From Gammaproteobacteria bacterium (GTDB lineage: Bacteria > Pseudomonadota > Gammaproteobacteria > PIVX01), in contig PIVX01000002.1 in the NCBI GenBank assembly GCA_003353785.1, positions 26,902 through 90,901 on the forward strand: a stretch of 64,000 nt of DNA, given 5' to 3'. Position numbers and translations under genes: made by a program. How positions within the stretch are numbered: the first letter of the stretch is position 1; each line of letters starts with the position of its first letter. Below the pieces are notes generated by a model that worked only from the letters and a program-made list of their open reading frames with translations, was not told the DNA's origin and made no database searches. This document shows, piece by piece, positions 7,928 to 54,938 of this stretch.

Positions 7928-7951
7928 TATATAAATGAAAAGGAGAAAAAA

Positions 7952-8473
7952 ATGAGAAAGATTGTCGCTACTATTTTGAGTTTAGCAATAATTGGTTTTA
8001 GTCATGCAAAAGATATGAAGATTGGTGTGGTTGATTTTCAAAAGGTTATTGTAGAAGCTCCGGCTGCTAAAAAAATGAATAGTGAATTGCAGAAAAAATA
8101 TAAGCCACGTAATTCGGAAATAAGGACATTAAAGTTGTCTGTGGAAAAGCAAGAAGCTGAGTTACAAAAGAATGAAAGTATTATGACTGCTGACCAGGTA
8201 GATAAAACGCGTAATAAATTAATCAGTCTTCGACGTTCTCTTGAGCGTAAAGTTGAAGATTTTCAACGTGCTTTACAAGAAGATCAAATCCAGGCTTCCA
8301 AGAAATTCTCTAAAAAAGTGGAGAGTCATGTCGAAAAAATTGGAGAGGAAGGAAACTTTGATATTATTTTACAAAAACAGGCTACTGTATTTGTAAAAGG
8401 GCAAAATAAAAAAGGGAAGAATAAAAAAGGTGGATTAGATATTACTGCACAGTTAATTAAAGTACTTAAATAA
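7952..8473 (+). CDS. skp: periplasmic chaperone Skp (OmpH)
   Basis: 173 aa with a signal peptide, then KIGVVDFQKVI and a K/E-rich coiled-coil body. It sits in the canonical bamA-skp-lpxD position. Confidence 0.85.
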   Translation: MRKIVATILSLAIIGFSHAKDMKIGVVDFQKVIVEAPAAKKMNSELQKKYKPRNSEIRTLKLSVEKQEAELQKNESIMTADQVDKTRNKLISLRRSLERKVEDFQRALQEDQIQASKKFSKKVESHVEKIGEEGNFDIILQKQATVFVKGQNKKGKNKKGGLDITAQLIKVLK

Positions 8474-8475
8474 AT

Positions 8476-9525
8476 ATGGTTTCTTTCTCTCTTAGACATC
8501 TTTCAGACTTAGTGAATGGTGAATGGAGTGGTGAACCCGATATTAAGATAGAAGGTATTGCTCCTTTAGATCGTGCTAATGATAAAAAGATCACTTTTTT
8601 GTTTGATCCAAGGTATATTAAATATTTAGCTGATACTAAAGCAGCAGCAGTTGTTATAAATAAAGAGCATGCTGCCAGTTGTCCGGTTAATTTTATAGTT
8701 GTATCAGATCCATATGTTGCATATGCTATTATTTCTAAGAGTTTTGATAATACGCCTATTTCTGCTAGGAATGTCCATCCTAGTGCTGTAATTGATGATT
8801 CGGTAAAACTTGGAGAAAATGTTAGTATTGGCCCTAATACATCAGTTTATTCAGGAGTTACTATTGGGGATAATGTAGTTATTGGTGCAAACTGTGTTAT
8901 AAGAGAGAATGTTACATTAGGAGATAGTTGTTGTCTTCACGATAGTATTTCTATTTATCATAGTTGTGTTTTAGGAAACAATGTAAGTGTACATAGTGGA
9001 GTAGTAATTGGTGCTGATGGTTTTGGTATTGCTAAATCTGAAGGTCGATGGCTTAAAATATCGCAGCTTGGTTCGGTAACTATTCATGACGATGTAGAAA
9101 TTGGTGCAAATACAACTATTGATAGAGGTGCTATTGATGATACTGTGATCCACCAAGGTGTTAAATTAGATAATCAAATTCAGATTGGTCATAATGTTTC
9201 TATAGGTAGTAATACAGCTATAGCTGGTTGTACTGGAATAGCTGGTAGCGCTAAAATTGGTAAGGATTGCCTTATTGGAGGGAGAGTTGGTATTTCTGGG
9301 CATAATACTATTACTGATAATGTAACTCTAATAGCATTTGCTGGGGTTAGAGGTTCAATAAAAAAACCTGGGGTGTATTCTGGTGGGATCGGTTGTATGG
9401 AGCATAAGAAATGGAATAAGATTGAAGCAAGGATAAAGCGATTAGATAGTTATATTAAAAAGTTAAAAAAATTAGAGCAAAAAATTCAAGTAGAAGAGGA
9501 AAATGATACAAATGATGCAGATTAA
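8476..9525 (+). CDS. lpxD: UDP-3-O-acylglucosamine N-acyltransferase
   Basis: Hexapeptide-repeat left-handed beta-helix (IGDNVVIGANCVI..., HNVSIG...) and the LpxD N-terminal domain. Synteny supports the call. Confidence 0.95.
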   Translation: MVSFSLRHLSDLVNGEWSGEPDIKIEGIAPLDRANDKKITFLFDPRYIKYLADTKAAAVVINKEHAASCPVNFIVVSDPYVAYAIISKSFDNTPISARNVHPSAVIDDSVKLGENVSIGPNTSVYSGVTIGDNVVIGANCVIRENVTLGDSCCLHDSISIYHSCVLGNNVSVHSGVVIGADGFGIAKSEGRWLKISQLGSVTIHDDVEIGANTTIDRGAIDDTVIHQGVKLDNQIQIGHNVSIGSNTAIAGCTGIAGSAKIGKDCLIGGRVGISGHNTITDNVTLIAFAGVRGSIKKPGVYSGGIGCMEHKKWNKIEARIKRLDSYIKKLKKLEQKIQVEEENDTNDAD

Positions 9526-9952
9526 AGAAATAATGAATAAAATTCCCCATAGATATCCATTTATATTGGTTGATAGAGTATTACATGTGGAGAAGTTTGT
9601 TAACCTTAGTGCTATTAAGAATGTTTCTATAAATGAACCTTATTTTAGTGGTCATTTTCCTGATAATCCGGTTATGCCAGGGGTATTAATTTTGGAGTCG
9701 CTTGCTCAGGCAAGCTCTATTTTTGCTCAATTTTCAGGTGCAAATGTAGGTGAAAATGCTATTCAAGTATTTGCTGCTATTGATAATGTTCGTTTTAAGA
9801 GAATAGTTGTACCTGGAGATCAATTAAAACTACAAATTGAATATATAAAACATAAAAAAGGTATTTGGAAAATTAAAGGAACGGCATTAGTCGAGGATGA
9901 AATAGCTTGTAGTGCTGATTTAACAAGTGCCACTAGGGAGTTTAGCGGGTGA
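9503..9952 (+). CDS. fabZ: 3-hydroxyacyl-ACP dehydratase
   Basis: IPHRYPFILVDRV and HFPDNPVMPGVLILE motifs. Several in-frame ATGs (9503-9533) make the exact start uncertain. Confidence 0.95.
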   Translation: MIQMMQIKEIMNKIPHRYPFILVDRVLHVEKFVNLSAIKNVSINEPYFSGHFPDNPVMPGVLILESLAQASSIFAQFSGANVGENAIQVFAAIDNVRFKRIVVPGDQLKLQIEYIKHKKGIWKIKGTALVEDEIACSADLTSATREFSG

Positions 9953-10719
9953 TTGACGAAAGGGCTCATATTGATCCATCTGCTAAAATTCATGACGGTG
10001 TTCAAATAGGTCCGTGGTCTTACATTGGTGAAGATGTAGAGATTGGCAATAATACAGTGATAGGGCCACACGTTGTTATTAAGGGAACAACTAAGATTGG
10101 TAAAGATAACCATATTTTTCAATTTGCATCAATCGGGGAAATATCCCAGGATAAAAAATTTAAAGGAGAAAATACTTTTCTTGAAATAGGTGATGGTAAT
10201 ACTATAAGAGAGAATGTTACTATTAATCAGGGTACGGCTGGTGGTAATGGTACTACCAAAATTGGTAATAACAATTGGATTATGGCTAATGTTCATATAG
10301 CTCATGATTGTATTATTGGTAACAATGTGACTTTTGCAAATTATGTAGGTTTAGCTGGTCATGTAACCATAGAAGATTATGCGACAATAAGTGGATATGC
10401 AGCTATTCACCAGTTTTGTGTAGTTGGGGCATACAGTTTTATTGCTAAAGCTTCTTATGTAACAAAGGATATATTACCATTTTTAATGATAGCAGGTTAT
10501 AATCCGGTTACATGTGGTTTAAATATTTTAGGTCTTAAAAGAAATAACTTTAGCCAAGAAGTAATTGATTTTTTAAAACAGGGCTACAAAATTATTTTTA
10601 GAAAAAATTTAACCGTAAATGAGTCAATCGAGGAATTAGAAAAACTATTACCAAAATGCTCTGAACTACAGTATTTTATTGATGGGTTAAAAATTTCCTC
10701 GCGTGGCATTATAAGATAA
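9949..10719 (+). CDS. lpxA: UDP-N-acetylglucosamine acyltransferase
   Basis: GTG start overlapping the fabZ stop (GTGA). Hexapeptide repeats and an LpxA C-terminal helical domain. Confidence 0.95.
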   Translation: MIDERAHIDPSAKIHDGVQIGPWSYIGEDVEIGNNTVIGPHVVIKGTTKIGKDNHIFQFASIGEISQDKKFKGENTFLEIGDGNTIRENVTINQGTAGGNGTTKIGNNNWIMANVHIAHDCIIGNNVTFANYVGLAGHVTIEDYATISGYAAIHQFCVVGAYSFIAKASYVTKDILPFLMIAGYNPVTCGLNILGLKRNNFSQEVIDFLKQGYKIIFRKNLTVNESIEELEKLLPKCSELQYFIDGLKISSRGIIR

Positions 10720-10741
10720 TATTAATCAATAATTATTTAAA

Positions 10742-11875
10742 GTGAAAGTTGGAATTGTTGCTGGAGAATCCTCCGGAGATATAATTGGGGCAAGGCTTAT
10801 TAAAGCATTAAAAGCTAACTATAAAAATATATCTTTTTATGGGTTAGCTGGGCCTAAAATGATAGCAGAAGGCTGTGTACCTATTGTGGAGATCAGCAAT
10901 GCTAATGTCATGGGTTTTGGTCATGTCATAAAGAAATTACCTAAAATATACAGTATAAAGAAACAACTACTGAATAATTTCAGGAATGATATTCCTGATC
11001 TTTTTATTGGGATTGATTTTACTGATTTTAATCTTGATTTAGCTAAAGATCTAAAAAAGCTCGGGGTTAAAATTGTTCAATATAAAGGTCCTTCTGTTTG
11101 GGCATGGCGCCCTGGTAGAAAAAAGAAAGTTGCAAAAATAGTTGACTTGCTGTTAACGATATTCCCATTTGAGCAGGAAGCTTATAAGGATGTACCAATT
11201 AATGCTAAGTATGTAGGGCATCCTATTGCTGGAGAGATCCCGCTAGTTATCGACAAGGCTGGGGCCCTTAAAAATTTGGGATTTAGTAGTGATGATAGGA
11301 TTGTTGCAGTTTTGCCAGGTAGTCGTGATCAGGAGATAATGACTTTGAGTGAAATTTATTTGAATACATTGGTTAGATTATCAAAAATATATCCGGATCT
11401 GATATTTGCTTGTGCTCATTTAAATGATCATACAATGCAAAAATTTAAAGGGATCCAAGATAAAATGAGTCTAGATATTAATATTAAACATTTTATTAAT
11501 AAAACTAGATTGGTATTAGAAGCATCCGATGCTGTTTTAGCTACTTCAGGAACTGTTACTTTTGAAGCTATGCTATACAAGAAGCCGATGATTGTAGCTT
11601 ACAAGGTTTCTTGGTTATTGGGTAAAATTTTAAGACAGTTAATCTCTATTAATCATATGGCTTTACCGAATTTGTTAGCAGATAAAGAAATTGTTAGAGA
11701 ATACAAACAGCTTGAGGTTAATGCTAAAGACTTATCTGAAGGGTTAGTTAGGGCTCTAGAAGATCGGGACTATCAACGGGAAATTAATACAGTTTTTATG
11801 GAGATCCATCAGAAGCTGCTGATGGATACAGAAAAAGAAATTGTAAAAAACATTAGTGATTTATTAGTAAGATGA
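10742..11875 (+). CDS. lpxB: lipid-A-disaccharide synthase
   Basis: GTG start. N-terminal KVGIVAGESSGDIIGARLIKALK is typical of LpxB. 377 aa. Confidence 0.9.
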   Translation: MKVGIVAGESSGDIIGARLIKALKANYKNISFYGLAGPKMIAEGCVPIVEISNANVMGFGHVIKKLPKIYSIKKQLLNNFRNDIPDLFIGIDFTDFNLDLAKDLKKLGVKIVQYKGPSVWAWRPGRKKKVAKIVDLLLTIFPFEQEAYKDVPINAKYVGHPIAGEIPLVIDKAGALKNLGFSSDDRIVAVLPGSRDQEIMTLSEIYLNTLVRLSKIYPDLIFACAHLNDHTMQKFKGIQDKMSLDINIKHFINKTRLVLEASDAVLATSGTVTFEAMLYKKPMIVAYKVSWLLGKILRQLISINHMALPNLLADKEIVREYKQLEVNAKDLSEGLVRALEDRDYQREINTVFMEIHQKLLMDTEKEIVKNISDLLVR

Positions 11876-12453
11876 TTATATATAAAATAGCAGGAGTAGA
11901 TGAGGCAGGTAGAGGTCCTTTAGCAGGGCCTGTCGTTGCTGCATCAGTAATTTTAGAGAGAGAGATTAAAGGAATAAGAGACTCAAAAAAGCTTTCAGAG
12001 AAAAAACGATTTAGCTTATCAAAGGATATTTATGATAATGCTAGTGCTATTGGTATAGGTATGTGTTACCCAGCTGAAATTGATTCTATAAATATTCACA
12101 ATGCTAGTTTATTAGCGATGAAAAGGTCAATAGATAACTTAGAAGAAGTACCAAATTATGTGTTAGTTGATGGAAGTTTTGTTCCTCCTGATGTTTCATA
12201 TTTATGTTTTTCAATAGTCAAAGGCGATATAAGTAATTACCTTATTTCTTCTGCATCGATAATTGCTAAAACGGTTCGTGATAGCATAATGATAAATTAT
12301 GAAGAGCAATATCCTGAATATGAATTTTCCAAGCATAAAGGATACCCGACAAAACAGCATATTGCTTCTCTTAGACAATATGGTCCTAGCCCAATCCATA
12401 GATATAGTTATGCTCCAGTTAAAAAATTTATTGAGGTGAGTGATGACAATTAA
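11872..12453 (+). CDS. rnhB: ribonuclease HII
   Basis: GVDEAGRGPLAGPVV active-site motif. ATGA overlap with lpxB. Confidence 0.95.
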   Translation: MIIYKIAGVDEAGRGPLAGPVVAASVILEREIKGIRDSKKLSEKKRFSLSKDIYDNASAIGIGMCYPAEIDSINIHNASLLAMKRSIDNLEEVPNYVLVDGSFVPPDVSYLCFSIVKGDISNYLISSASIIAKTVRDSIMINYEEQYPEYEFSKHKGYPTKQHIASLRQYGPSPIHRYSYAPVKKFIEVSDDN

Positions 12454-20494: not shown

Positions 20495-20787
20495 TAGATA
20501 AGTATTTAAAAATAGCTTATTTAAAACAGCATTAATAGAAGAAAAAAGAGTGCTGCTATATAAGTTATTGATCTCATTGATACTTAAATAATTTTTCATC
20601 CAAATTGATTGAAAATATCACATCTATTTGCTGTCAATAGTTATATATAATTTTATATATACTATATTTATATGTATGGTACGGTAATTTATTGTAATTA
20701 AAGAATAGTAGAATAGAACTAAAAAAATTAATTATCTAGAAAATATTATCTGCATAAGAAAGTACTTAGTTTATCAAGGAATTGAAG

Positions 20788-29385: not shown

Positions 29386-30966
29386 TTAATTTTGAGTTAT
29401 GGTTTTGCCTGTTTGGGATATTTCTGGCTCATAGTCTAGTGAGTTTGTTGCTTGGCATGATTCTTTGATACCTGGTACTAATTCGTGTAGCTTAAAAATA
29501 GAATATATCCATAATAGAATCAAGCTAATAATGATCACCGACACAAATGGTATTGTAGCGGAGATATTCCCAAAGATAATTAGTAAGACAATATAAAATA
29601 TTGAGCCAAAAGATTTCCCTAATCGAGAAGTAATTCCATCTACTATAGCTTTACTTTTACGTTGCTCATATTTTGATAAAGGTATAAAGCACATTTCTTT
29701 GGTTGTATCAAAGATAGTATACTTGCAGCTTCTACCTAGACTTATTTGCAATGTTCCTAGTATTAAAATTATGTTAGTTGGATTCTGGACAAAAGTTGCA
29801 AAAATATCTGATGCTATAATATTTTCAAATAGTATTGCTGAATAGAAGAGTGTACCTGTAGCTAGCCATACCAGAGGGGTTACAAGAGCTGAGTATTTCC
29901 ATCCACTATTACGTATGATAGCTCCAGAAATAACGCAGCCAAAAAATGTAGAAATTATTCCTGTTAACATAGTTACTTGATTCATATATTGATAAAAAGA
30001 TTTACTATCAGGATAGGCTATTTTGGCTCTATGTGACCAGATTACATCAGCTAAATTCCAAACGACATTATATGACAGTACAAGAAGCACTATATATATA
30101 AGGTATTTGGATTTTTTAAGTAGGACGATGCATGCATACAATGATATCTTTGGTTTTTCTTTGGGGTGTAAATAAGATGGATTTTCTGCTTTAATAATAA
30201 ATTTATTTATATAACAAAATATTGCAATAACTGTAATAGATAAAATTATAACAGTTAATAATTGGTAAAATACCCATTGGTATTCAGCATGATAAATCTT
30301 TACTATTGGTAGCTTCATTGAGATCATCTTACTAGAGAATATTCCCATAAAAATACCTGCGATATTTATACCAGTACAAAAAACGGCATAGAACCTTTTG
30401 GCTTCATTCATCTTGGTAATTTCATTAGCAAACCCCCAAGTTAGCATAAGTAAAACCACGCTACTCCAAAGCTCTGAAATAACATAAAATAAAGCTATAT
30501 TCCAATATCTTATAATAACAATAATCCCGTCAAATCCATTTGCAATTAGCATATTGGATTTCAAGAAGTCTGCAATTGAATGTAGTTCTAGAAGATCTTG
30601 ATTAGGGAATAAGATAAAGGTAAACAATAAAAAGTATGTTAGGAATCCTCCCACCATATAATAAAATACTCTCTCACGATTATATTTAGTAGCTAATTTA
30701 GTAAATATATATGTGGCAATAATTGCACTTGGTAAGACACAGCCAATCTTCAAAAATGGGATGATATTAGCCCCGGAACCTTTTAAGGTAATGATCAAGG
30801 CAATTTTCATGTTTCGAAGAAGATGGTAGACAAATGAGACTAGAAAAAATAGGCAAAACATAGGAACGAGCTTTTTGTGCTCATTAGCCTGAATTGGCCA
30901 AATAAGGTTCCGAATTATATCAATAGGTTTTTTTATTTCCATTAGGATGAATTTTATTTTACCCAT
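29386..30966 (-). CDS. tlc: ATP/ADP translocase (nucleotide transport protein, TLC/NTT family)
   Basis: 526 aa, about 12 TM. N-terminal IWPIQANEHKKLVPMFCLFFLVSFVYHLLRNMKIALIIT..GSGANIIPFLKIGCVLPSAI is colinear with the rickettsial/chlamydial Tlc N-terminus (IWPIE..ELKKFLP...LR..KD.LVVT...GAE.I.FLK). Confidence 0.85.
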   Translation of the reverse strand: MGKIKFILMEIKKPIDIIRNLIWPIQANEHKKLVPMFCLFFLVSFVYHLLRNMKIALIITLKGSGANIIPFLKIGCVLPSAIIATYIFTKLATKYNRERVFYYMVGGFLTYFLLFTFILFPNQDLLELHSIADFLKSNMLIANGFDGIIVIIRYWNIALFYVISELWSSVVLLMLTWGFANEITKMNEAKRFYAVFCTGINIAGIFMGIFSSKMISMKLPIVKIYHAEYQWVFYQLLTVIILSITVIAIFCYINKFIIKAENPSYLHPKEKPKISLYACIVLLKKSKYLIYIVLLVLSYNVVWNLADVIWSHRAKIAYPDSKSFYQYMNQVTMLTGIISTFFGCVISGAIIRNSGWKYSALVTPLVWLATGTLFYSAILFENIIASDIFATFVQNPTNIILILGTLQISLGRSCKYTIFDTTKEMCFIPLSKYEQRKSKAIVDGITSRLGKSFGSIFYIVLLIIFGNISATIPFVSVIIISLILLWIYSIFKLHELVPGIKESCQATNSLDYEPEISQTGKTITQN

Positions 30967-32309: not shown

Positions 32310-32329
32310 TTATGTATATAAATAATAAG

Positions 32330-32347
32330 ATGACAGCTATCTGTCAT
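32330..32347. repeat. hairpin ATGACAG-CTAT-CTGTCAT (7-bp stem) followed by CTGAC-AAGTA-GTCAG-TTTT at 32381-32399
   Basis: Read directly. The hairpin lies between the gcdH stop and the tnpB fragment stop. It could be the gcdH terminator and/or the subterminal hairpin of an IS200/IS605 right end. Confidence 0.5.
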
Positions 32348-32438
32348 GAATGACGAAGCTTCCAATATCAATGGCTACAGCTGACAAGTAGTCAGTTTTA
32401 GGCAAGCCTCCATTGGCAGATCGGACAGCCCTTTAACT

Positions 32439-32630
32439 TTAATATATGTTTATTGATGCATTTATATCTCGATCGTGGTGTGCATTACACTTTGAGCAAT
32501 TCAATTTACGCACTGACAATGGTAATTCATCCATTGTAAAAGAATAGTCCGAACATGTTTCAGAGCTAGTAAACCACTGATCAATTTTATAGTTGTAATT
32601 ACCCCATGGATGTGATGAACTGAGCAGCAA
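32439..32630 (-). pseudogene. tnpB: IS200/IS605-family TnpB C-terminal fragment (zinc-ribbon/RuvC-III region only)
   Basis: WFTSSETCSDYSFTMDELPLSVRKLNCSKCNAHHDRDINASINI matches the TnpB C-terminus (fpSSqtCs.CG....L.Ls.R...C..Cg..hDRD.NAA.NI), but the first CxxC pair is degraded (CSDY). Only about 60 of the roughly 400 expected residues remain. A frame-shifted trace (KINRISENYIQAIIKNH) is visible upstream to about 32700. Confidence 0.7.
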
Positions 32631-33172
32631 TGATTTTTAATGATTGCTTGAATATAATTTTCGGATATTCTGTTAATTTTATCAATAAGAATTTTGAGTG
32701 CATGATAAGCTATAAATAGGCTACGTTAAATTCACTTATCTTTATTCAATTAGCGTTTTACTTTGTTATTTTGAGGAAATGCGGTGATTTCTGCTTAGTT
32801 AACTCTAGTTTAATGTCTATATGTTTAGATTTTGGATTAATTTTAATACTAAAAGGTCATTAAAGGTGGTGATTGCTCAATTTGTTGTCGTGTATAACAA
32901 ATTTTTTTGAATTAAAAGGGCACTAATATGAAAAAAACTAAGTTAGCAATATTGTTTGTTTTATGTATAGGAGCTAATTCTTTAGCAAATCATGTGAAAA
33001 TTTATAGTCGTCACCTGCAGGAAATGATAGCGTAATTAATGTTACATATAGTCATACTTTGGCTGTGCTTTAGTTTTAGTGATAGATAGGAAATTGTCAA
33101 AGATTTTTGCTTGTAAGAAATAAAAATAGTACTATGAAAATTTTATATAAATAAAATAAGAATGGAGAGCTG

Positions 33173-45007: not shown

Positions 45008-46246
45008 TTAAGATAAGAGTTTTTTTTCTTGAGCAGATTCGTGTCTTTCCCTTCTATCTATATCTATATATTTATCCATTGTAGCCGGATTAGAGTGACC
45101 TACATCATCTCTGATATGTTCTCTTGGTCTGTGTTTTACATCATTAGATATAGCAGTGTGCCTTAACCAATGTACAGTAGCATTTTCCAAATCCAAGGCA
45201 TCATCTAAGAGTTGTTGTTTTTTTAATTTTTCAATAGCGATGTTAAAAGAGTCTTGCACTATATTTCTGATTTGTCTTGTTCCTAAGCCGTTTCTACCTT
45301 TATTTTTGTGAATTAACGGAGTTTTTTCTCCTCTTGATGGTAGTGGAATAAGGCTTCTACTAATTCTATATTTTTTTAATATTTCTAAAAGTTGGGATGG
45401 CACGGCAACTTCTCTTAATTTATTGCCTTTACCTACAGTTGAAAACCACCATAGAGAATTGTGATCTGGATAAAAATCTCCCATGCAAGGGATTCTACCT
45501 GGAGTTTCCGCAAGCTCAGATATTCTAAGTCCAAGCAAATAAAAACAGGATAAAATAAAATATGTTCTTAGATAATTTGGATCTTGAGATGCAAGATCTT
45601 GGGTAGATTTTATTACGCTTTTCCATTGTAGATCAGAAAGCTTCCTAGTAACTTTCATATTTTGTTCGCGTTGTATATATTTACTTTTTTGTCGAATTAA
45701 GGCTACAGGGTTAGTTTGAATATATTGTTCTTGAACTAGATAGGTGAAAAAAGAACTCAGTGTAGCAAAGGTTGATTGGATAGACTTTCCGCTAAGAGTA
45801 AAATTATGTTTATATGGAATTTTACCTTCTTTATATTGATATTTAGGTATTTTAACGACAAAGGGTCTCCATTCTTTATTAAAAGATATGTCTCCTGATT
45901 TAGATTCTTTAAATCTTTTGACAATTTTTGTAGCAATCCATGAGTTTGGTGGATTCTGAACAAAGTCTAAAAATTCTATAATATCATTTCTAGTTACATT
46001 TTTAACTAATGTTTTTTTGATAGTCCAACTCCATTGGATTAATTTTTCTATTTCTCTTCTATAGGCTGTGTAAGTATCGTTAGAGCCGGCATATGCAGCA
46101 AGGTAATTTCTTATTATATTATATTCAATATCAATATTCTTTAAATTTAGAACGCATAAGTATTCTTGAATACAATTATATGGGATTTTATCTATTTTAT
46201 CTAATTTATCAAAAAATGGTTTTGGAGGAGATATTTTTTCTTTCAT
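45008..46246 (-). CDS. tyrosine recombinase / phage-type integrase with a long N-terminal extension
   Basis: Catalytic set LGLRISELAE (Arg), HWLRHTAIS (His-x-x-Arg) and GHSNPATMDKY (His...Tyr). 412 aa. Its ATG (46246-46244) overlaps the ppsR stop (46248-46246). Confidence 0.85.
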   Translation of the reverse strand: MKEKISPPKPFFDKLDKIDKIPYNCIQEYLCVLNLKNIDIEYNIIRNYLAAYAGSNDTYTAYRREIEKLIQWSWTIKKTLVKNVTRNDIIEFLDFVQNPPNSWIATKIVKRFKESKSGDISFNKEWRPFVVKIPKYQYKEGKIPYKHNFTLSGKSIQSTFATLSSFFTYLVQEQYIQTNPVALIRQKSKYIQREQNMKVTRKLSDLQWKSVIKSTQDLASQDPNYLRTYFILSCFYLLGLRISELAETPGRIPCMGDFYPDHNSLWWFSTVGKGNKLREVAVPSQLLEILKKYRISRSLIPLPSRGEKTPLIHKNKGRNGLGTRQIRNIVQDSFNIAIEKLKKQQLLDDALDLENATVHWLRHTAISNDVKHRPREHIRDDVGHSNPATMDKYIDIDRRERHESAQEKKLLS

Positions 46247-47232: not shown

Positions 47233-49602
47233 ATGCAGAATTACTTGTGGTTCAATAAAGTCAATATGGATGATGTGGCCATTGTTGGAGGAAAAAACGC
47301 TTCTCTAGGTGAAATGATAAGCAAATTATTTGAAGTAGGCGTAGATGTTCCTTTTGGTTTTGCTACTACAGCTGAGGCATTCCAAAAATTTATGTCTGAC
47401 AATGGGATAGATAAAGAGGTAGGTAAGATACTTCAAGATTTTGATGTTAACGATATATCTAAATTGCAAAAAGTAGGTAAAAAGATTAGAGATATGATAG
47501 TGGGCTCTGATTTTAATAAAGATTTTGTTGATGATATATCACAAGCTTTTAAAGAGTTATTAGACAGGTCTGGAGATAATACTACTTTCGCAGTTAGATC
47601 CTCGGCTACAGCAGAAGATCTTCCAACCGCATCTTTTGCAGGACAGCAAGAAACCTTTTTGAATGTAGCAGGTTTAGACAATATTCTTATAAAAATTAAA
47701 GAAGTATATGCTTCTTTATTTAACGATCGTGCTATTTCTTACCGTGTACATCATAAATTTAATCATATTGATGTAGCTATATCTGTTGGGATCCAACAGA
47801 TGGTACGTAGTGATTTGGCTGTCAGTGGCGTTATGTTTACTTTAGATACTGAATCAGGTTATCAAGGTGTAGCATATATAACAGCTTCATATGGACTAGG
47901 AGAGTCGGTAGTTAGTGGTGCAGTTAATCCTGATGAATTTTATGTTGATAAAAAAATATTGGCAAATAATAAGCCAGCAATTATTCGTAGGATTAAAGGT
48001 ACAAAAAAAACTAAGATAGTATATTCTCCTGACGAAGAGAATAGTGATATTAGTACTGTAGATGTTTCTCCTGGAGATCAAAAAAAGTTTTCTCTTAGTA
48101 ACAAAGATATTACTGAATTAGCATCTTTAGCGGTAAAAATTGAAAAGCACTATAAAAGACCTATGGATATTGAATGGGCTAAAGACGGTCTCACTGATAA
48201 ATTATTTATTTTACAAGCTAGGCCTGAAACAGTTGAAAGTAATAGAGCTAAAGACGTCAAAATTGAGAAATATATTCTAAAAGAAAAAAGCGATATCCTG
48301 GTATTGGGAAGGAGTGTTGGTAATAAAATAGGAAGTGGAAAATTACGTATATTAACGGGAGCAAATGATATGCATTCCCTTGAAGAAGGTGATGTACTAG
48401 TAGCAGATATGACAGATCCTGATTGGGAACCAATTATGAAGAAATCTAGTGCAATTGTTACCAACAGAGGGGGTAGGACATGCCATGCTGCTATAATTGC
48501 ACGAGAACTAGGAATTCCAGCTGTAGTTGGAACAGAAAATGCAACAAAAATTCTTAAAAATAGAGAAAACGTTACTATATCTTGTGCAGAAGGAGATGAA
48601 GGTAAAGTATATGCTGGTAAATTAGATTACTCTATTAATACTCATATATTATCTATGCTACCAGAAATACCGGTTGATATTATGCTAAATTTGGGAAATC
48701 CTGATAATGCATTTAACTGTCATAATATACCGAATGCAGGAGTTGGGTTGGCTAGATTAGAATTTGTTATTAACAATATGATTGGAATTCATCCAAATGC
48801 AATTTTAAATATTGATGAAATGTCAGATGATGTAAAAAGTAAGATTTTTGATAAGAGTCTTGGATATTCTTCTCCACGAAATTTTTATGAGCAAAAATTG
48901 ATAGAAGGTATTGCTACAATTGCGAGCGTATTTTATCCTAAACCAGTAATAGTAAGGATGTCTGATTTTAAATCCAATGAGTACGCTAATCTCATTGGAG
49001 GTGAACAATTTGAACCCAATGAAGAAAATCCTATGATTGGCTTTAGAGGTGCTTCTAGATATCTTTCGTCTGTTTTTAGAGAGTGCTTTGAAATGGAATG
49101 TAATGCTATTAAATTTGCTAGAAATAAAATGGGTCTTGATAATATAAAAGTGATGATCCCTTTTGTACGTACGGTTGATGAAGCTAAAGCGGTTATTGAG
49201 TTATTAAAAGAGTTTGGTATTGAAAGGCAGGTAGATGGCTTACAAGTTATCATGATGTGTGAATTACCATCTAACGTGGTATTAGCAGAAGAGTTTCTGG
49301 AGTATTTTGACGGATTTTCAATTGGTTCAAATGATTTGACTCAATTAACTTTAGGGTTAGACAGGGATTCATCTAGAGTTGCATATTTATTTGATGAAAG
49401 AAATTTAGCTGTTAAAAAAATGCTTAAAATGGCTATTGAAGCATGTAAAAAATCTAACAAGTATATTGGGATTTGTGGTCAAGCTCCATCGGACTATATT
49501 GAATTAGCTACGTGGTTGGTTGACGAAGGTATTCAAAGTATATCTCTCAATCCAGATTCAGTAGTGAATTCCATTATAGAGATATCTGAAAATAATAAAT
49601 AA
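47233..49602 (+). CDS. ppsA: phosphoenolpyruvate synthase
   Basis: 789 aa with an ATP-grasp N-terminal domain, the phospho-His swivel motif GGRTCHAAIIARELGIPAVVG, and a PEP-utilising C-terminal TIM barrel (GFSIGSNDLTQL). Confidence 0.97.
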   Translation: MQNYLWFNKVNMDDVAIVGGKNASLGEMISKLFEVGVDVPFGFATTAEAFQKFMSDNGIDKEVGKILQDFDVNDISKLQKVGKKIRDMIVGSDFNKDFVDDISQAFKELLDRSGDNTTFAVRSSATAEDLPTASFAGQQETFLNVAGLDNILIKIKEVYASLFNDRAISYRVHHKFNHIDVAISVGIQQMVRSDLAVSGVMFTLDTESGYQGVAYITASYGLGESVVSGAVNPDEFYVDKKILANNKPAIIRRIKGTKKTKIVYSPDEENSDISTVDVSPGDQKKFSLSNKDITELASLAVKIEKHYKRPMDIEWAKDGLTDKLFILQARPETVESNRAKDVKIEKYILKEKSDILVLGRSVGNKIGSGKLRILTGANDMHSLEEGDVLVADMTDPDWEPIMKKSSAIVTNRGGRTCHAAIIARELGIPAVVGTENATKILKNRENVTISCAEGDEGKVYAGKLDYSINTHILSMLPEIPVDIMLNLGNPDNAFNCHNIPNAGVGLARLEFVINNMIGIHPNAILNIDEMSDDVKSKIFDKSLGYSSPRNFYEQKLIEGIATIASVFYPKPVIVRMSDFKSNEYANLIGGEQFEPNEENPMIGFRGASRYLSSVFRECFEMECNAIKFARNKMGLDNIKVMIPFVRTVDEAKAVIELLKEFGIERQVDGLQVIMMCELPSNVVLAEEFLEYFDGFSIGSNDLTQLTLGLDRDSSRVAYLFDERNLAVKKMLKMAIEACKKSNKYIGICGQAPSDYIELATWLVDEGIQSISLNPDSVVNSIIEISENNK

Positions 49603-50545
49603 GATAGCTAATTTTTAATAAAAATCATTAATTAAAACAGTAAAGTTAATATATTTTTCACGTTATAAATTCTTAATATTTATACTTTAACTTACTTTAG
49701 ATATATTGATTAATCTATTGATTATAATAAATTAATTACTATAGAAGTTCTTTTATTGATAGTCATCTAAAATAAATAGGTTCTAAGTCATTATTTACAT
49801 TAAATATATAATATAATATATTGATATAAAACAAATATTGCATATTATGCGTTTTGACTAAATAATTTTTACCAAAGAATACTAAAACTCATTGATTTAT
49901 GTGATATTGAATTTAAGTTCAACAAATCACATCATACTAGAAGGGCAGCATCTTCGTTTTACATTGGTTATGCAGTTAAGAGTTAGCTAATAATTTAACA
50001 TAGCAATTAAACTATTTATTAGAAATTAATTTTTTTCAATGTTACTAAATGGTCAATATTTGTAAATTTCATGGTGTACAAATTGTTTACTAATGGACCG
50101 TATTCTTTCTTAAATTTTAGCTATTAATAGTTTATGAATATTAATCAATAGTATTGCTTTAATAGTTTAACATTGTTTATTGGTACAGGAGGAGAGTATA
50201 GAGGGGCCTACTTATGATTTTTAATTAGGTTTTGGTTAATCAATTCTCTATTTTATTTTAGAATATTGTTTTGAGCCTATTTCATAATGTATTTCAAATA
50301 GAGCAGTATAAATATTTGATCATATATTATTTCATTTAATTACAGGCAAGATTTATATTATTTGAATATTTTTGATAATTTGTAAATCTAATTAATATGC
50401 ACCTATATGTTGTAATAAATAAGCCGATGGAAGATCTGTTTTTTATAATTATATTTGATAATCATTTAGGGCATTGGTTGCTAAAATAGTTATAAGAGAT
50501 AATAAAAGATTAATCTTATCAATTAATTATAATGGAATGGATTAA

Positions 50546-50587
50546 AAAAATATTTTTCATAATGATAATTAATATAAAAATATTTTT
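50546..50587. repeat. two copies of the 12-bp palindrome AAAAATATTTTT spaced 30 bp start-to-start
   Basis: Copies at 50546-50557 and 50576-50587, inside the 1.16-kb ORF-free region upstream of the TraA-like gene. This may be no more than AT-rich low complexity. Confidence 0.3.
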
Positions 50588-50721
50588 ATTTTAGGAAGTA
50601 ATATCAATCAGTTTTATAAAATAATATATGCATATATATGTTATAAAAATTAACGGCTCGTTTTTATCAAACACCGACTATACTTAATTTTATCCTAGAA
50701 ATTTTTCACATTAATAGTGTG

Positions 50722-50743
50722 TTGTATTTAAACAACAATACAA
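50722..50743. repeat. inverted repeat TTGTATT-N8-AATACAA 19 nt upstream of the TraA-like ORF
   Basis: Read directly: arms at 50722-50728 and 50737-50743. Candidate operator or vestigial oriT arm. A 7-bp repeat is weak in DNA this AT-rich. Confidence 0.3.
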
Positions 50744-50762
50744 ATATATGTTCATGGAGTAG

Positions 50763-53700
50763 TTGTTGGCAATATATTCATTTGATTCCAGTGTAATACG
50801 CAGAAGCCAAGGAAATTCTGCTTTAAGGGTTGCTGCTTATTATCGCGGGATCAGAATGCATGAGGAAAGAACTGGAAAAATTACTCCTTGGACAGATGCA
50901 GTAGAAGTAGTTTATAGCAATATTGTGTCCGATGATAATGCCCCACAGTGGGTGCAAAAATTGATCAGCTGTCAGAGTTTTAATGGTCATGCTGTTAGTG
51001 AGTCTCTATGGAACAAAGTATCTAAAATGGAAAAAAGGAAAGACTCTCAAGAGGCATATAAACATTTTTTTGCTTTGCCAAATGAGATGAGATTGAATCA
51101 ATTAATTTCTTTAGCTGATGAAGTTGCAAAGATGATTGCATCCTATGGGACGGTTGTAGATTATAGTATACATTGTAAACAAGGTAACTATGGTATGCAC
51201 ATGTTAGAAACTATGAGGTATTTAAATCAAGATGGTTTTGGATTTAAGAATGCTAGTTTAAGTAAAGGAGTAAATTTTATCTCTGGAAAAGCAAGCCAAA
51301 ATTCCAGGCTATGGTTAATACGTGAACAAGCTTCTGCTATTACCAACAAGCATCTAATTTGTTGTGGGATCAAAGCTTGTATAGATCATCGTACACTATT
51401 TGAACAAAATAATCCATTGAGATCTCCTATTAGGGTAGGGAGTAGTTCTTGTCAAGCAGCTGAGCAGGGGGTACTAACAGAAAGGTTTTTAAAAAATGAA
51501 CAAATCAAGAAAAACAATTTTGAGCTTCTAACAGAAAATCCTGATTTTATTATATCTGAACTAGCAAATAAATTAGATGATTTTACCTATCCTGATATCG
51601 TGAAGAAAATCATGAAGTATATACCAATAAAGAATAATAGTTTTAAATTAGATAAAAAAACTATTAATAGAAGTTTAGAAGTAGAAATGAATAAATTTAT
51701 CCAAGATTTTTTTAAAAAAAGTCATGAAAAAAAAGATCTGATTGAAAATCTAAATAGATCAATAAATATTAGTGAGACTATAGCTAGCAAAATTGCTAAT
51801 ATATTAATATTGTTGCAAGAATCTAAAAAAATGATTTATCTTGGAGTTGATGAGAATGGTTTGAATAGGTATACAACAATTTCCCGTTTTAAGCAAGAAA
51901 ATTTGATGATGGAAAGAGTATTAAAGCTTGCCAACACGAAAAATTATCTTGTCAAAGACAAGATAGTTAATAACGCCATTAGCAAATCTGCAAAAACAAA
52001 AAAAAATAATAAGAAATTTAGGCTAAATGAAGAACAAAAATTTTCTATTAAGTATTTGACTTCAGGCTATCAACTTAGGTGTCTTGCGTGTCAAAATTCA
52101 GAAAATAAAAAAGAACTATTAAGTTTATGTACAACTATTTGGAGGATGCATGGTTTCACTACTATCTTATCATCTGCAGTTGGTTTATCTATCAGTGCTT
52201 TTTCGGAATATGGTTTTAATAAATGTCTAACTATTAATGATCTTTTATTAAAGATTAAAAATTCAGATACTAATATTCTTGATGATAAAACTGTTCTAAT
52301 AGTTAACGATGCTTCTATAATTAATAATCAGGATTTAGGGGCAATTATTAAGGCATGCTCAAATTTTAAGAGTAAACTGATCTTGATTGGAAATTTATCT
52401 GAATTATGTGAAGGAAAAGGGAGTGCTTCATTTAAAACAATCATTGAATCTATAGGTGTTTCTTTATCATCAGATGCTATATTTCAGCAAAAAAAATGGC
52501 AGCGTAGAGCAAGCGCGATGTTTGCTATGGGAAATATTTCAGATGGCCTTGAATCTTATTATGGAAAAGGTAATATTAAATTCTCTGCAGATGATAAGTC
52601 AACAAAAGATAAACTATTAAATGATTGGATGAATAGTCAAGAAGCTATTGAAAAAAAAATCATATTTGCTCATGATATTAAAGATGTTAATGAACTAAAC
52701 TCCAGAGTTAGATATGAAATGCTAGATAGCAGGTATCTTAAAAATAACATTCAATTAGAGCTAGGAATAGAAAAAGATGACAAATTGTTTTTGACTAATC
52801 TTGCTATTAATGAAAGGGTTATGCTTAAAAAAGGGAGTCGCTTATATGATGAATATTTAACAAGCAATAAAATAGCAACTGTTAGTGAGATTAAAACAGA
52901 TAATAGCAATATACTAAGAGGTATAGTTTTTAAACTTGATGATTCTAGTCATGAAGTATTCGTGGGTTCACAAGATATTATAAGTGGTGATGTTAAATTT
53001 TTATATGCTTATGCATTATTAATAAATGATTGTGATGGTTTTAGATTTAACGAATCATATTTTTATTGTGGCAATATCTTAGATAGCTCGGAAATGTATC
53101 TTATTATGACCATGCATATTGTGGATGCCTGCTTATACGTTAGTAATTTAAAATTTAGTGATTTTAATTCTTTAGTAACTGGATTATCAAAAAAAATCCC
53201 TAAAGATATTGAATTAAACTACCCTATAAAATTTGCATTAAGTCGAGGATTAAAGATAGAAGATTTTGTTAGTGATACACTTGGCACTAATATGACTATG
53301 CAAATAGATAAAGATGTAATTTCACCTAAAAGGGATAATGTTGGTGAATTTGTGGTGCAAAACAAAAAAATCATTACTAAAAATAGTAAGTTTTCAGATG
53401 TAAATAAATATGTTAATGCGAAGCAGGATTTTGCCAATGAATGGTCTGAATTTACAAAATATGCTGAAGATAATGACTATTATAACCATATCGATAGTCG
53501 AGTAGAAATATTTAGGATGGGGGATTTATCTATATATAAACAGTTGAAAAAGAATTTTTTCTTTGTTCATGAACTATCTGAATTAGTATTTTCTAGTTTA
53601 GATAAATATGAAACTGATTTACGAAGTATAGATGAATATAAAGATTTCTTACATAGAAGAAAGAGTTATTCTAATCTATTAAATATTGTTTATAAATATA

Positions 53701-54782
53701 AACAGGCAAGAGATAAATTATATAATGCTAAAGCTATAGTCGAGAACATACAAGCTTCCCCTGCTTTTCTTATAAAACTTGAAGATATTAAGCTTGATCA
53801 GGGAATATTAAATAAATGTGCAAGAGAATATGAAAAACAAACATACTTAAAAAAATTAAAAGGTAAAGAGTTAGAACATTTTAAATTAATTGGAAAATAT
53901 GATGAGGTTTGTAAATCTTTAGAAGAGACTAGAAACGTATATCAGAGGTTTTATGAAAATATTGATAAGGAACAATTGCCAGAACAAATGGATAGTGAAC
54001 ATTTTTACTTAAACTCTATTTGTTCAAGTGAATCAAATTCAATGACGATGAAACAGAACTTGCTTAAGCAAGAAAAAATCTGTCAGTCTCTTGCTTATAA
54101 AATTCAAGAAGAAGCAATTGACTCAATAGGGTTAAGCTTTTATAGATTTGATAATGAAAAATTAATAGTAAGGCTAAAAAGCAAATATGAATTAGAAAAT
54201 AGTAAAGAGGGAAATCCCAAGGTAAAGATATTATTGTCTATTAAAAAAAACCTTGATTTTTTAATAGATAAACAACAACAAATAGCTGCACATTCCTTAG
54301 GATATGAATGTTTTATTAATATTATAAAATATAAAAAAGAACCAACTAGTAAACTTGCTGCAAGTATTAGAGCAACTCTTAAGAGTTGCTCTAATATAAT
54401 TTACTCTCTGGCTAGAGAGCATGAAATTAACTGGAATAACTTATTAAATAGGGCAGAGGAATTTGATAAAAATAAGATTTATCAAGGATTAGATAATCAG
54501 CAAAAAATATGTTTTGATAGGGTGGAAAAATATCTGAGTTTAGATAGGAAGCTCCAGGATATTAAATATGAAAAACATTTAAGTGATCCTAACGTTACTA
54601 GAGATAAATTATTTCTAGCAAATCAAATCTTATCTGAATTGAGTGAGCATAAAAAAGCTTTAGAGTTTTATCATTTTGCAGATAATATTGATGAAAATGG
54701 TAAGTTTACACAATATGAAATAGAAAATTTTAACAAGCTTAAAAAAGATCATTTAGACTTTTCTTTACAAAATAATAAATAG
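50763..54782 (+). CDS. Ti-type TraA-like relaxase/helicase homolog with substituted catalytic motifs and a long K/E/N-rich C-terminal region
   Basis: The N-terminus (M)LAIYSFDSSVIRRSQGNSALRVAAYYRG is MobA/MobL motif I. WNKVSKMEKRKDSQEAYKHFFALPNEM and VDYSIHCKQGNYGMHMLETMRYLNQDGFGFKN are colinear with TraA_Ti, and the central region is colinear with the TraA RecD-like helicase (LNEEQKFSIKYLT..., WQRRASAMFAMGN). TTG start at 50763. The second TTG at 50766 has better spacing to GGAG (50756-50759) and gives the family-typical MAIY start. Confidence 0.8.
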   Translation: MLAIYSFDSSVIRRSQGNSALRVAAYYRGIRMHEERTGKITPWTDAVEVVYSNIVSDDNAPQWVQKLISCQSFNGHAVSESLWNKVSKMEKRKDSQEAYKHFFALPNEMRLNQLISLADEVAKMIASYGTVVDYSIHCKQGNYGMHMLETMRYLNQDGFGFKNASLSKGVNFISGKASQNSRLWLIREQASAITNKHLICCGIKACIDHRTLFEQNNPLRSPIRVGSSSCQAAEQGVLTERFLKNEQIKKNNFELLTENPDFIISELANKLDDFTYPDIVKKIMKYIPIKNNSFKLDKKTINRSLEVEMNKFIQDFFKKSHEKKDLIENLNRSINISETIASKIANILILLQESKKMIYLGVDENGLNRYTTISRFKQENLMMERVLKLANTKNYLVKDKIVNNAISKSAKTKKNNKKFRLNEEQKFSIKYLTSGYQLRCLACQNSENKKELLSLCTTIWRMHGFTTILSSAVGLSISAFSEYGFNKCLTINDLLLKIKNSDTNILDDKTVLIVNDASIINNQDLGAIIKACSNFKSKLILIGNLSELCEGKGSASFKTIIESIGVSLSSDAIFQQKKWQRRASAMFAMGNISDGLESYYGKGNIKFSADDKSTKDKLLNDWMNSQEAIEKKIIFAHDIKDVNELNSRVRYEMLDSRYLKNNIQLELGIEKDDKLFLTNLAINERVMLKKGSRLYDEYLTSNKIATVSEIKTDNSNILRGIVFKLDDSSHEVFVGSQDIISGDVKFLYAYALLINDCDGFRFNESYFYCGNILDSSEMYLIMTMHIVDACLYVSNLKFSDFNSLVTGLSKKIPKDIELNYPIKFALSRGLKIEDFVSDTLGTNMTMQIDKDVISPKRDNVGEFVVQNKKIITKNSKFSDVNKYVNAKQDFANEWSEFTKYAEDNDYYNHIDSRVEIFRMGDLSIYKQLKKNFFFVHELSELVFSSLDKYETDLRSIDEYKDFLHRRKSYSNLLNIVYKYKQARDKLYNAKAIVENIQASPAFLIKLEDIKLDQGILNKCAREYEKQTYLKKLKGKELEHFKLIGKYDEVCKSLEETRNVYQRFYENIDKEQLPEQMDSEHFYLNSICSSESNSMTMKQNLLKQEKICQSLAYKIQEEAIDSIGLSFYRFDNEKLIVRLKSKYELENSKEGNPKVKILLSIKKNLDFLIDKQQQIAAHSLGYECFINIIKYKKEPTSKLAASIRATLKSCSNIIYSLAREHEINWNNLLNRAEEFDKNKIYQGLDNQQKICFDRVEKYLSLDRKLQDIKYEKHLSDPNVTRDKLFLANQILSELSEHKKALEFYHFADNIDENGKFTQYEIENFNKLKKDHLDFSLQNNK

Positions 54783-54938
54783 GATTATATTATATAATGA
54801 ACTTACTCCTCCTTTATAGTTCACATATAAAAAAATAAATTATCGACTTTTTCGTAGTATCTGTGAAGTGTTTTAAGGGGGGGAGCCGTCAAAATTCAGT
54901 CCAAACTTACTATTTAGTATTATTTGTAAATGAATCAC

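Follow-up and report, generated by a model that had tools for sequence, protein, structure and literature searches.

A TraA-like relaxase-helicase gene with a degenerate helicase domain between ppsA and mltD of a gammaproteobacterial chromosome

The TraA-like reading frame and its relatives

We analysed a 64-kb stretch of contig PIVX01000002.1 from a gammaproteobacterial assembly (GCA_003353785.1), hereafter called the window. The window is ordinary chromosome and carries lolCDE, uppS, cdsA, dnaE, fimV, truA, accD, folC, dapA, ugp genes, ppsR-ppsA, mltD-gloB and fadE/A/B. An open reading frame (ORF) at 50766-54782 on the forward strand, with ppsR, ppsA, mltD, gloB and fadE/A/B as its near neighbours, encodes a protein of 1338 amino acids (aa) that resembles TraA, the relaxase-helicase of Ti-type plasmids. 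An earlier note, made from the DNA sequence, had described this TraA-like ORF as an intact frame in which every readable catalytic motif is substituted. As set out below, the helicase part has lost its catalytic residues while most of those of the relaxase are kept, and we lean towards viewing the gene as a plasmid relaxase remnant that stands alone, has been domesticated and would act by binding rather than catalysis.

The TraA-like ORF is intact, long and open, as had been claimed, with a single in-frame stop compared with 52-236 stops in the other five frames; the probability of its staying open from base composition alone is 5e-58. Two TTG codons, at 50763 and 50766, are candidate starts. 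The second is the likelier one, because a GGAG sequence at 50757-50760 lies only 3 nt from TTG 50763 but at normal spacing to TTG 50766, and because a start at 50766 yields the N-terminus M-A-I-Y, as in the TraA family. Residues are numbered here from TTG 50766, which places them one lower than in the earlier note. The ORF lies in DNA of 28.5% GC, and its codon-position GC of 0.37/0.28/0.20 (GC1 > GC2 > GC3) resembles that of host genes. Of all single substitutions in the ORF, 5.7% would give a stop, and the ratio of nonsense to missense changes is 0.076. Promoter and terminator scans were uninformative in this AT-rich DNA.

Profile searches place the protein in the MOBQ family. The N-terminal relaxase domain (MobA/MobL, MOBQ; aa 1-235, nt 50766-51470), delimited by profile matches and alignment, matches Pfam MobA_MobL (PF03389) over aa 19-231 with an E-value of 1.3e-33 and 117 bits, above the cut-off of 26.7. 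It is followed by a linker defined by alignment (aa 236-420, nt 51471-52025) and by a degenerate RecD-like helicase domain of superfamily 1B (SF1B; aa 421-830, nt 52026-53255), delimited by profile, alignment and conserved columns. The match of the latter to Pfam AAA_30 is weak (E 1.3e-8, 35 bits), compared with 158 and 144 bits in the two nearest relatives, P0008 and P0009, and 188 bits in TraA of pTiC58. The NCBIfam model TraA_Ti (TIGR02768) matches with E 2.6e-105 and 353 bits, below its equivalog cut-off of 590 bits, and the MobQ model NF041496 with E 2.4e-34, under its cut-off of 200. The only solved structure related by sequence is the NES relaxase 4ht4 (E 1e-10). In a tblastn search against plasmids, traA of Agrobacterium Ti, Aquicella and Legionella plasmids aligned with the whole of aa 1-829 (~25% identity, E ~1e-58); colinearity with TraA had been proposed for about the first 650 residues and in fact extends over ~830. 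Judged by these matches, the TraA-like ORF is a genuine homologue of MOBQ/Ti-type TraA relaxase-helicases.

To find its relatives, we used an exhaustive phmmer search over 1.84 billion representatives, which returned 7507 relatives, the 155 best of which were used for the comparison of columns. A word-index search with the full protein was discarded; it gave only TraA proteins of 20-23% identity, as low-complexity words had crowded out the true relatives that phmmer recovered. The closest two relatives are P0008 (1722 aa, 580 bits) and P0009 (2992 aa, 564 bits), whose alignments pass residue 1050. Both are colinear with the TraA-like ORF along its whole length at 31-33% identity overall, and identity rises in the relaxase domain (45% for P0008, 38% for P0009) and in the C-terminal module (41% and 34%, respectively). 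Furthermore, P0008 and the TraA-like ORF have two derived features in common, H-M-L-E-T-M-R and a K-G-[VI]-N-F insertion.

Both relatives lie on plasmid-like contigs with a GC content of 33-34% each. P0008 comes from a 46-kb metagenome contig of the Joint Genome Institute that carries genes for ParA/ParB, SSB, a PemK toxin and a TrwB-type coupling protein, with a DUF7146/Toprim ORF downstream. P0009 comes from a 19-kb contig of GCA_003358065.1, a Globobulimina foraminifer assembly; the accession prefix of the contig, PJEL, belongs to the Globobulimina genome paper (PMC6783311). P0008 and the ORF that follows it (DUF7146/Toprim, 837 aa), at 10001-17721 of contig L084, jointly match the single 2992-aa P0009, and a second helical module spans the gap between the two ORFs; a frameshift, a stop or the gene caller has probably divided a single gene here.

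The C-terminal ~500 aa had been thought to have no recognisable homology. This did not hold: the last 470 aa align with aa 899-1401 of P0008 (E 1e-55) and aa 881-1376 of P0009 (E 1e-51) and constitute a helical extension that is native to a small subfamily of relaxases. The first helical extension (aa 831-1115, nt 53256-54110) shows homology to P0008 and P0009, and weak homology to other giant relaxases. The part that is 41% identical to P0008, over aa 1198-1401 of that protein, is the C-terminal helical module (aa 1116-1338, nt 54111-54782). There is one copy of the module in the TraA-like ORF, two in P0008 (the second continuing into the next ORF) and three in P0009. A DUF7146/Toprim primase part comes after the modules of the relatives, within P0009 itself and in the ORF after P0008, whereas the TraA-like protein stops ~10 aa past its single module and has no such part. 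A structure prediction of the C-terminus, which had been suggested as a check, gave all-alpha AlphaFold models from shallow alignments, with a mean predicted local distance difference test score of 79.6 for aa 860-1115 and 75.7 for aa 1111-1338, and neither model has a Foldseek match in the PDB at an E-value below 0.6.

The earlier note had also pointed to the Bartonella Bep proteins and their BID domain as a precedent. As a homology this was not borne out: Pfam gave no hit of any kind at E<=0.1 in the C-terminus of the TraA-like ORF and detected no BID (PF17841) in it or in P0008 and P0009, profile-profile comparison by hhalign gave a probability of 0.2%, and the Foldseek search returned nothing. 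In TraA of pTiC58, BID is found directly after the helicase with E 1e-42. A profile search with the module alone found no carriers other than relaxases.

The coding sequence of the module also contains a 32-nt perfect palindrome, TATTAGAGCAACTCTTAAGAGTTGCTCTAATA, at 54365-54396 (encoding I-R-A-T-L-K-S-C-S-N-I). No perfect palindrome in the window is longer, the next best reaching 92% over 13 nt, and it involves no insertion relative to the homologues; it could reflect templated quasi-palindrome correction or be a putative binding site.

Catalytic positions and domain-specific divergence

The four peptide strings on which the earlier note had based its claim of substituted motifs (HCKQGNYGMH, LACQNSENKK, VLIVNDAS and ILIGNLSEL) are encoded where it had placed them. 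We then inspected the catalytic positions column by column, a check that had been proposed beforehand, using the 42 columns conserved to 93% or more among the 155 best relatives (12 in the relaxase, 4 in the linker and 26 in the helicase). The substitutions in Walker A, Walker B and the middle His were all found again, but the other relaxase residues are present. Thus the statement that every catalytic motif is substituted applies to the helicase, with 16 of 26 columns changed, and not to the relaxase, which keeps its tyrosine, two of three histidines and 10 of 12 columns.

In the relaxase domain, the catalytic tyrosine Y25, a Tyr in 152/152 aligned relatives, is retained, in line with what had been read from motif I. 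R13, E89, R91, D93, L104, P105, E107, H136, N141 and H145 are retained as well, and the E-K-R-K-D-S and L-P-x-E motifs are present. The histidine motif (nt 51171-51200) reads H136-C-K-Q-G-N141-Y-G143-M-H145 in the translation and column alignment. Position 143 is Gly in the TraA-like ORF but His in 154/154 relatives, so that the middle His is lost. The His triad carries the catalytic metal in relaxases (PMC2943615), and here the site is incomplete, with H136 and H145 present and H143 replaced. An acidic residue following the first His, which had been listed among the losses, belongs to a column that is not conserved within this relaxase subfamily, and more distant TraA proteins have a loop 5 aa longer at this motif. 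The number of near-invariant relaxase columns kept is the same in the TraA-like ORF and P0008 (10/12 each) and is 12/12 in P0009, and all three proteins keep 4/4 linker columns. A linker segment of ~40 aa is present in the subfamily and in other large relatives but absent from the TraA proteins of pTi, Aquicella and Legionella. As read from these columns, the nickase lacks one metal ligand and otherwise resembles that of active relatives.

The helicase domain presents a different pattern. At the Walker A position (nt 52089-52112), where the family has G-x-A-G-x-G-K-S/T, the translation reads C-Q-N-S-E-N-K-K, corresponding to G442C, A444N, G445S, G447N and S/T449K, and only K448, conserved in 155/155 relatives, is retained. 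At the Walker B position (nt 52293-52316) it reads V-L-I-V-N-D-A-S, corresponding to D514N and E515D, where 153/153 relatives have D-E. Motif III carries D543N and Q546E, and the arginines of motifs IV and VI are replaced (R573F, R783M). Each of these substituted positions is 93-100% conserved in the 155 relatives. Overall, the TraA-like ORF keeps only 10 of the 26 near-invariant helicase columns, compared with 24/26 in both P0008 and P0009, in which the His triad, the two Walker motifs, motif III and the arginines of motifs IV and VI are all intact. Among the 155, this pattern of loss recurs in no other full-length protein; the other sequences with high losses are short fragments. By every sequence criterion, the helicase ATPase is dead, as had been predicted from the Walker motifs.

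We also compared divergence between domains by estimating the Kimura-corrected terminal branch lengths of the TraA-like ORF, P0008 and P0009 for each domain with 1000 bootstraps. The excess of the TraA-like branch over the mean of the P0008 and P0009 branches was close to zero for the relaxase (+0.05, 95% interval -0.16 to 0.25) and for the C-terminal module (-0.08, -0.42 to 0.23), but it was +0.61 for the helicase (0.39 to 0.86), +0.45 for the linker (0.05 to 1.00) and +0.95 for the first extension (0.46 to 1.92). The helicase branch of the TraA-like ORF is ~2x as long as in P0008 and P0009, and in each of the 1000 bootstraps the excess was greater for the helicase than for the relaxase. Since uniform neutral decay would lengthen all domains alike, the pattern argues for continued constraint on the relaxase and the C-terminal module and relaxed constraint in the middle of the protein. 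Moreover, the ~250 excess replacements in the helicase, if neutral, would bring ~19 stops, while 0 are observed. The proposal that the open frame reflects selection rather than passive decay is thus backed by the domain-specific branch lengths and, in addition, by the eroded state of the neighbouring spacer described below.

Insertion between ppsA and mltD

Two genes of the window bear on the nature of the host. A TLC ATP/ADP translocase is encoded at 29386-30966 on the reverse strand (Pfam 3.7e-133) and is also syntenic in two contigs of relatives, L087 and L088; its presence suggests that this Legionellales-like lineage lives inside cells as an energy parasite. The host DnaE is nearest, among named organisms, to that of Legionella and Legionellales (47-49% identity). 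Because of the translocase and the affinity of DnaE, the host is probably an intracellular relative of the Legionellales. There are closer relatives, whose DnaE is 56-76% identical.

One of these relatives (DnaE 56% identical) is readable across the site and has gloB, mltD, ppsA, ppsR and an integrase-like gene in the same order. Its site is empty: mltD and ppsA run into each other with an 8-nt overlap of their ends, and the region 49603-54938, comprising the TraA-like ORF and its spacer, is therefore an insertion relative to that genome. In the search for orthologs, a metagenome scan with MltD found none, and a scan with PpsA gave only ~60% identical matches.

Upstream of the ORF, the insertion includes an AT-rich spacer at 49603-50765, which with 1163 nt and 20.9% GC is the longest intergenic stretch of the window and is absent from the syntenic relative. 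It has 32-43 stops per frame and a longest open run of 43 codons, and probably represents the left-hand part of the inserted element in an eroded state. In tblastn searches, no remnants of Mob, ParB, type IV coupling protein (T4CP) or primase genes were detectable in it. The one match, between aa 1284-1327 and the ORF that follows P0008, proved to be a further copy of the helical module and not a gene remnant.

The origin of transfer (oriT) is missing as well. Five readable relatives (Aquicella, Legionella, pTiC58 and the P0008 and P0009 contigs) share an oriT of RSF1010/pTi type located 100-160 nt upstream of traA, which consists of GCGC-N3-TATA followed directly by a 5-7 bp hairpin and has a constant strand relative to traA; the oriT-bearing upstream regions are L081 3216-3449, L082 2743-3000, L083 5797-6000, L084 9594-10000 and L085 3147-3590. 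The window contains no exact match to this core and 20 one-mismatch matches, compared with 29 expected by chance, and the spacer has no stable hairpin of the family type. We considered a GC-rich patch at 50197-50214 (TAAGTAGGCCC) as a degenerate oriT and rejected it, as it matches the core at 8/11 positions and has no hairpin (z = -0.1).

Other partners of a relaxase are likewise gone from the vicinity. No tra, T4CP or type IV secretion system (T4SS) gene was found in the window, as had been noted before, with the qualification that the protein scan excluded ORFs in 5594-12453, where the syntenic contig L086 of a relative carries bamA, skp, lpxD, fabZ, lpxA, lpxB and rnhB. The window also yielded no tRNA gene, no Rfam match and no match to the PADLOC defence models.

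A 17-nt direct repeat, AAAATAATAAATA[A/G]GAT, is present in copies that lie 5180 nt apart and are the only two in the 64 kb. The left copy, AAAATAATAAATAAGAT (49589-49605, forward strand), forms the last codons and stop of ppsA (E-N-N-K-*), and the right copy, AAAATAATAAATAGGAT (54769-54785, forward strand), the last codons and stop of the TraA-like ORF (Q-N-N-K-*). Only 0.05% of random zone pairs match as well as these copies (16/17), and PpsA of the syntenic relative ends with ...VIAS* and does not have the codons covered by the left repeat. The repeats are compatible with attachment-site-like ends of a site-specific insertion that then underwent internal deletions; having been noticed post hoc, they are not relied upon here.

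The integrase-like gene at 45008-46246 on the reverse strand was ruled out as part of the element; being syntenic and 65% identical in the relative without the insertion, it is a conserved host gene. Its 412-aa product is tyrosine-recombinase-like, scores 73 bits against XerC/XerD cut-offs of 335, and its start overlaps the end of ppsR. The identity to its counterpart (L088 4762-5997) is slightly above that of PpsA (62%), and the gene looks like a domesticated recombinase rather than the integrase of a mobile element.

Possible roles of the protein and other features of the window

The reading we lean towards, a solitary plasmid relaxase remnant domesticated for binding, would involve the following steps. 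The ancestor would have been a giant MOBQ/Ti-type relaxase-helicase like P0008 and P0009, whose motifs are intact and whose contigs carry a standard oriT, ParAB and a coupling protein. The element that carried this ancestor, plasmid-like and either conjugative or mobilisable, would have inserted between the convergent ppsA and mltD genes of an AT-rich, probably intracellular, Legionellales-related gammaproteobacterium, and the TraA-like ORF would be the sole surviving gene of that element. Its role as an enzyme would have ended with the loss of the nucleotide-binding and hydrolysis residues of the helicase and of one of the three metal ligands of the nickase, the oriT, accessory protein and coupling protein having disappeared from the vicinity and the primase part having been truncated away. 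The protein would still be produced and would have been retained, its relaxase fold and C-terminal module having diverged no faster than in active relatives. The relaxase domain and the dead helicase would hold single-stranded DNA (ssDNA) or hairpin DNA, and the helical module would supply protein contacts.

For the dead helicase, the closest parallel in function is TraI of F/R1 (MOBF), in which a vestigial helicase of the SF1B fold within the relaxase protein has lost Walker A and B and is kept as an ssDNA-binding element (PMC5422253). Most plausibly, by analogy, the helicase part of the TraA-like ORF works like this domain. However, F/R1 TraI is a functioning enzyme of conjugation that has an active helicase besides the vestigial one, whereas the TraA-like ORF belongs to a different relaxase family and has only the dead copy.

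Several points weigh against this interpretation. The gene is a singleton, one gene in one genome, with no ortholog in 15 billion proteins or in genome-contig and metagenome-contig scans, and for this reason the ratio of nonsynonymous to synonymous substitution rates (dN/dS) is not computable. It is absent from the one readable syntenic relative and is thus not needed by the wider clade, and its start codon is TTG. The rate comparison uses two relatives at 31-45% identity, and its alignment is uncertain in the linker and first extension. The helicase was possibly dead already on the plasmid, with a recent insertion, and base composition fails as a clock of residence, the donor-type contigs (33-34% GC) being as AT-rich as the host.

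A second explanation, which we consider unlikely although plausible for a host of this type, is that the protein is a type IV secretion substrate or effector, recognised by Dot/Icm or another T4SS through its relaxase/helicase scaffold or its module and delivered into a eukaryotic host, where it would bind DNA or proteins. Relaxases are natively T4SS substrates, and the translocation signals of TraI sit in helicase-fold subdomains (PMC3912908, PMC5422253). The TLC translocase of the host and its DnaE affinity to Legionella and Legionellales, the conservation of the module without acceleration and the origin of P0009, a nearest relative, from a foraminifer assembly would all be consistent with such a role. 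However, no T4SS or T4CP gene was found in the 64 kb, which are part of a contig of at least 181 kb, BID was not detected by Pfam, hhalign or Foldseek, the module is confined to relaxases, and a pure role as a secretion signal leaves the retention of the catalytic Tyr and the active-site frame unexplained.

We give a somewhat lower probability to the TraA-like ORF being a young pseudogene, in which the helicase would have been vestigial already on the donor plasmid and the chromosomal copy would be decaying with no stop or frameshift yet. The gene is solitary, truncated before the primase part, devoid of oriT and partners, absent from the syntenic relative, started by TTG and a singleton in all databases searched, and H143G hits a residue invariant in 154/154 relatives. 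On the other side stand 1338 open codons in 28.5% GC DNA with no internal stop, a periodicity of GC1 > GC2 > GC3 as in host genes, and a relaxase and module without excess divergence, although uniform neutral decay would strike all domains. In addition, the full erosion of the flanking spacer implies that time has elapsed since insertion.

That the relaxase is a working nickase, cutting and rejoining an oriT elsewhere in the genome or on a plasmid, with unwinding and transport provided in trans and the helicase part as a DNA clamp, appears least probable: Tyr25, 10/12 relaxase columns (the count of the active relative P0008), two of three His and an unaccelerated relaxase branch would permit it, but the lost His is a metal ligand invariant in 154/154 relatives, a family-type oriT was not found in the window (20 one-mismatch matches against 29 expected), and no T4CP or accessory Mob gene lies nearby.

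The domesticated remnant that we favour differs from each of the known systems to which it can be compared. With P0008 and P0009 it shares full-length colinearity, the helical extension and the module, but these relatives have an intact His triad and helicase motifs, 2-3 modules followed by DUF7146/Toprim, an upstream oriT and plasmid genes, whereas the TraA-like ORF has none of these and is chromosomal. It has the same layout of MobA/MobL relaxase and RecD-like helicase as Ti-type TraA (pTiC58; TIGR02768) and TraA of Aquicella and Legionella plasmids, but it lacks the BID that follows the helicase in pTiC58 TraA, the divergent traC/D/G or Mob genes and the oriT. The traA copies of Rickettsiales amplified genetic elements in Orientia and Rickettsia are likewise remnants of transfer genes stranded in the chromosome of intracellular bacteria; these, however, are described as forming clusters that are multi-copy, fragmented and largely pseudogenised, whereas the TraA-like ORF is single-copy, full-length and open with domain-specific conservation. 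Stranded conjugation genes are common in intracellular bacteria and are usually taken as junk being lost. The combination seen here, a full-length relaxase-helicase with an intact frame, a motor that is selectively dead and a conserved module specific to its subfamily, is an uncommon variant of this known situation and no new kind of system. What sets it apart is the selectivity of the loss, with a dead motor and one missing metal ligand and yet the fold, catalytic Tyr, module and frame kept, which makes the TraA-like ORF a concrete candidate for the conversion of a conjugative relaxase into a binding protein. The comparison also brings out a small subfamily of giant plasmid relaxases that had no name before and whose helical module can be repeated; its members come from an environmental metagenome and a foraminifer assembly.

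What the Bartonella Beps and the BID domains of alphaproteobacterial relaxases have in common with the TraA-like ORF is the idea that relaxase-derived parts can be reused as T4SS substrates (PMC5675462). The Beps keep the signal domain alone, whereas the TraA-like ORF keeps the whole relaxase-helicase scaffold with no BID domain or fold detected. We regard it as a speculative and rather unlikely idea that an intracellular Legionellales-like bacterium domesticated this whole scaffold with both catalytic centres disabled. The protein would then either bind DNA as an effector delivered by a T4SS or serve in the chromosome as a decoy, binding the oriT or the coupling machinery of plasmids of its own family when these enter the cell. 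If true, domestication of the scaffold would be a route from relaxase to non-enzymatic protein distinct from the BID-domain route, and, were translocation or oriT-decoy activity to be shown, it would represent a second way in which evolution has turned a relaxase into an effector or defence factor.

Three further features of the window and its relatives were observed. In contig L087 (SRR23272268_31325), a skp-fabZ-rnhB stretch at 8338-9997 is without lpxD, lpxA and lpxB, which are present in the window (8476-11875) and in L086; lipid A synthesis may have been lost in the L087 lineage. The second-longest gap of the window, 863 nt at 32310-33172, has 30% GC and no ORF of at least 120 aa. Finally, two tandem paralogues on the forward strand (20782-22458 and 22721-24382), ~555 aa long and 46% identical, lie between folC and cvpA and have no Pfam, NCBIfam or PADLOC match; as folC and cvpA are adjacent in L087, the pair is lineage-specific.

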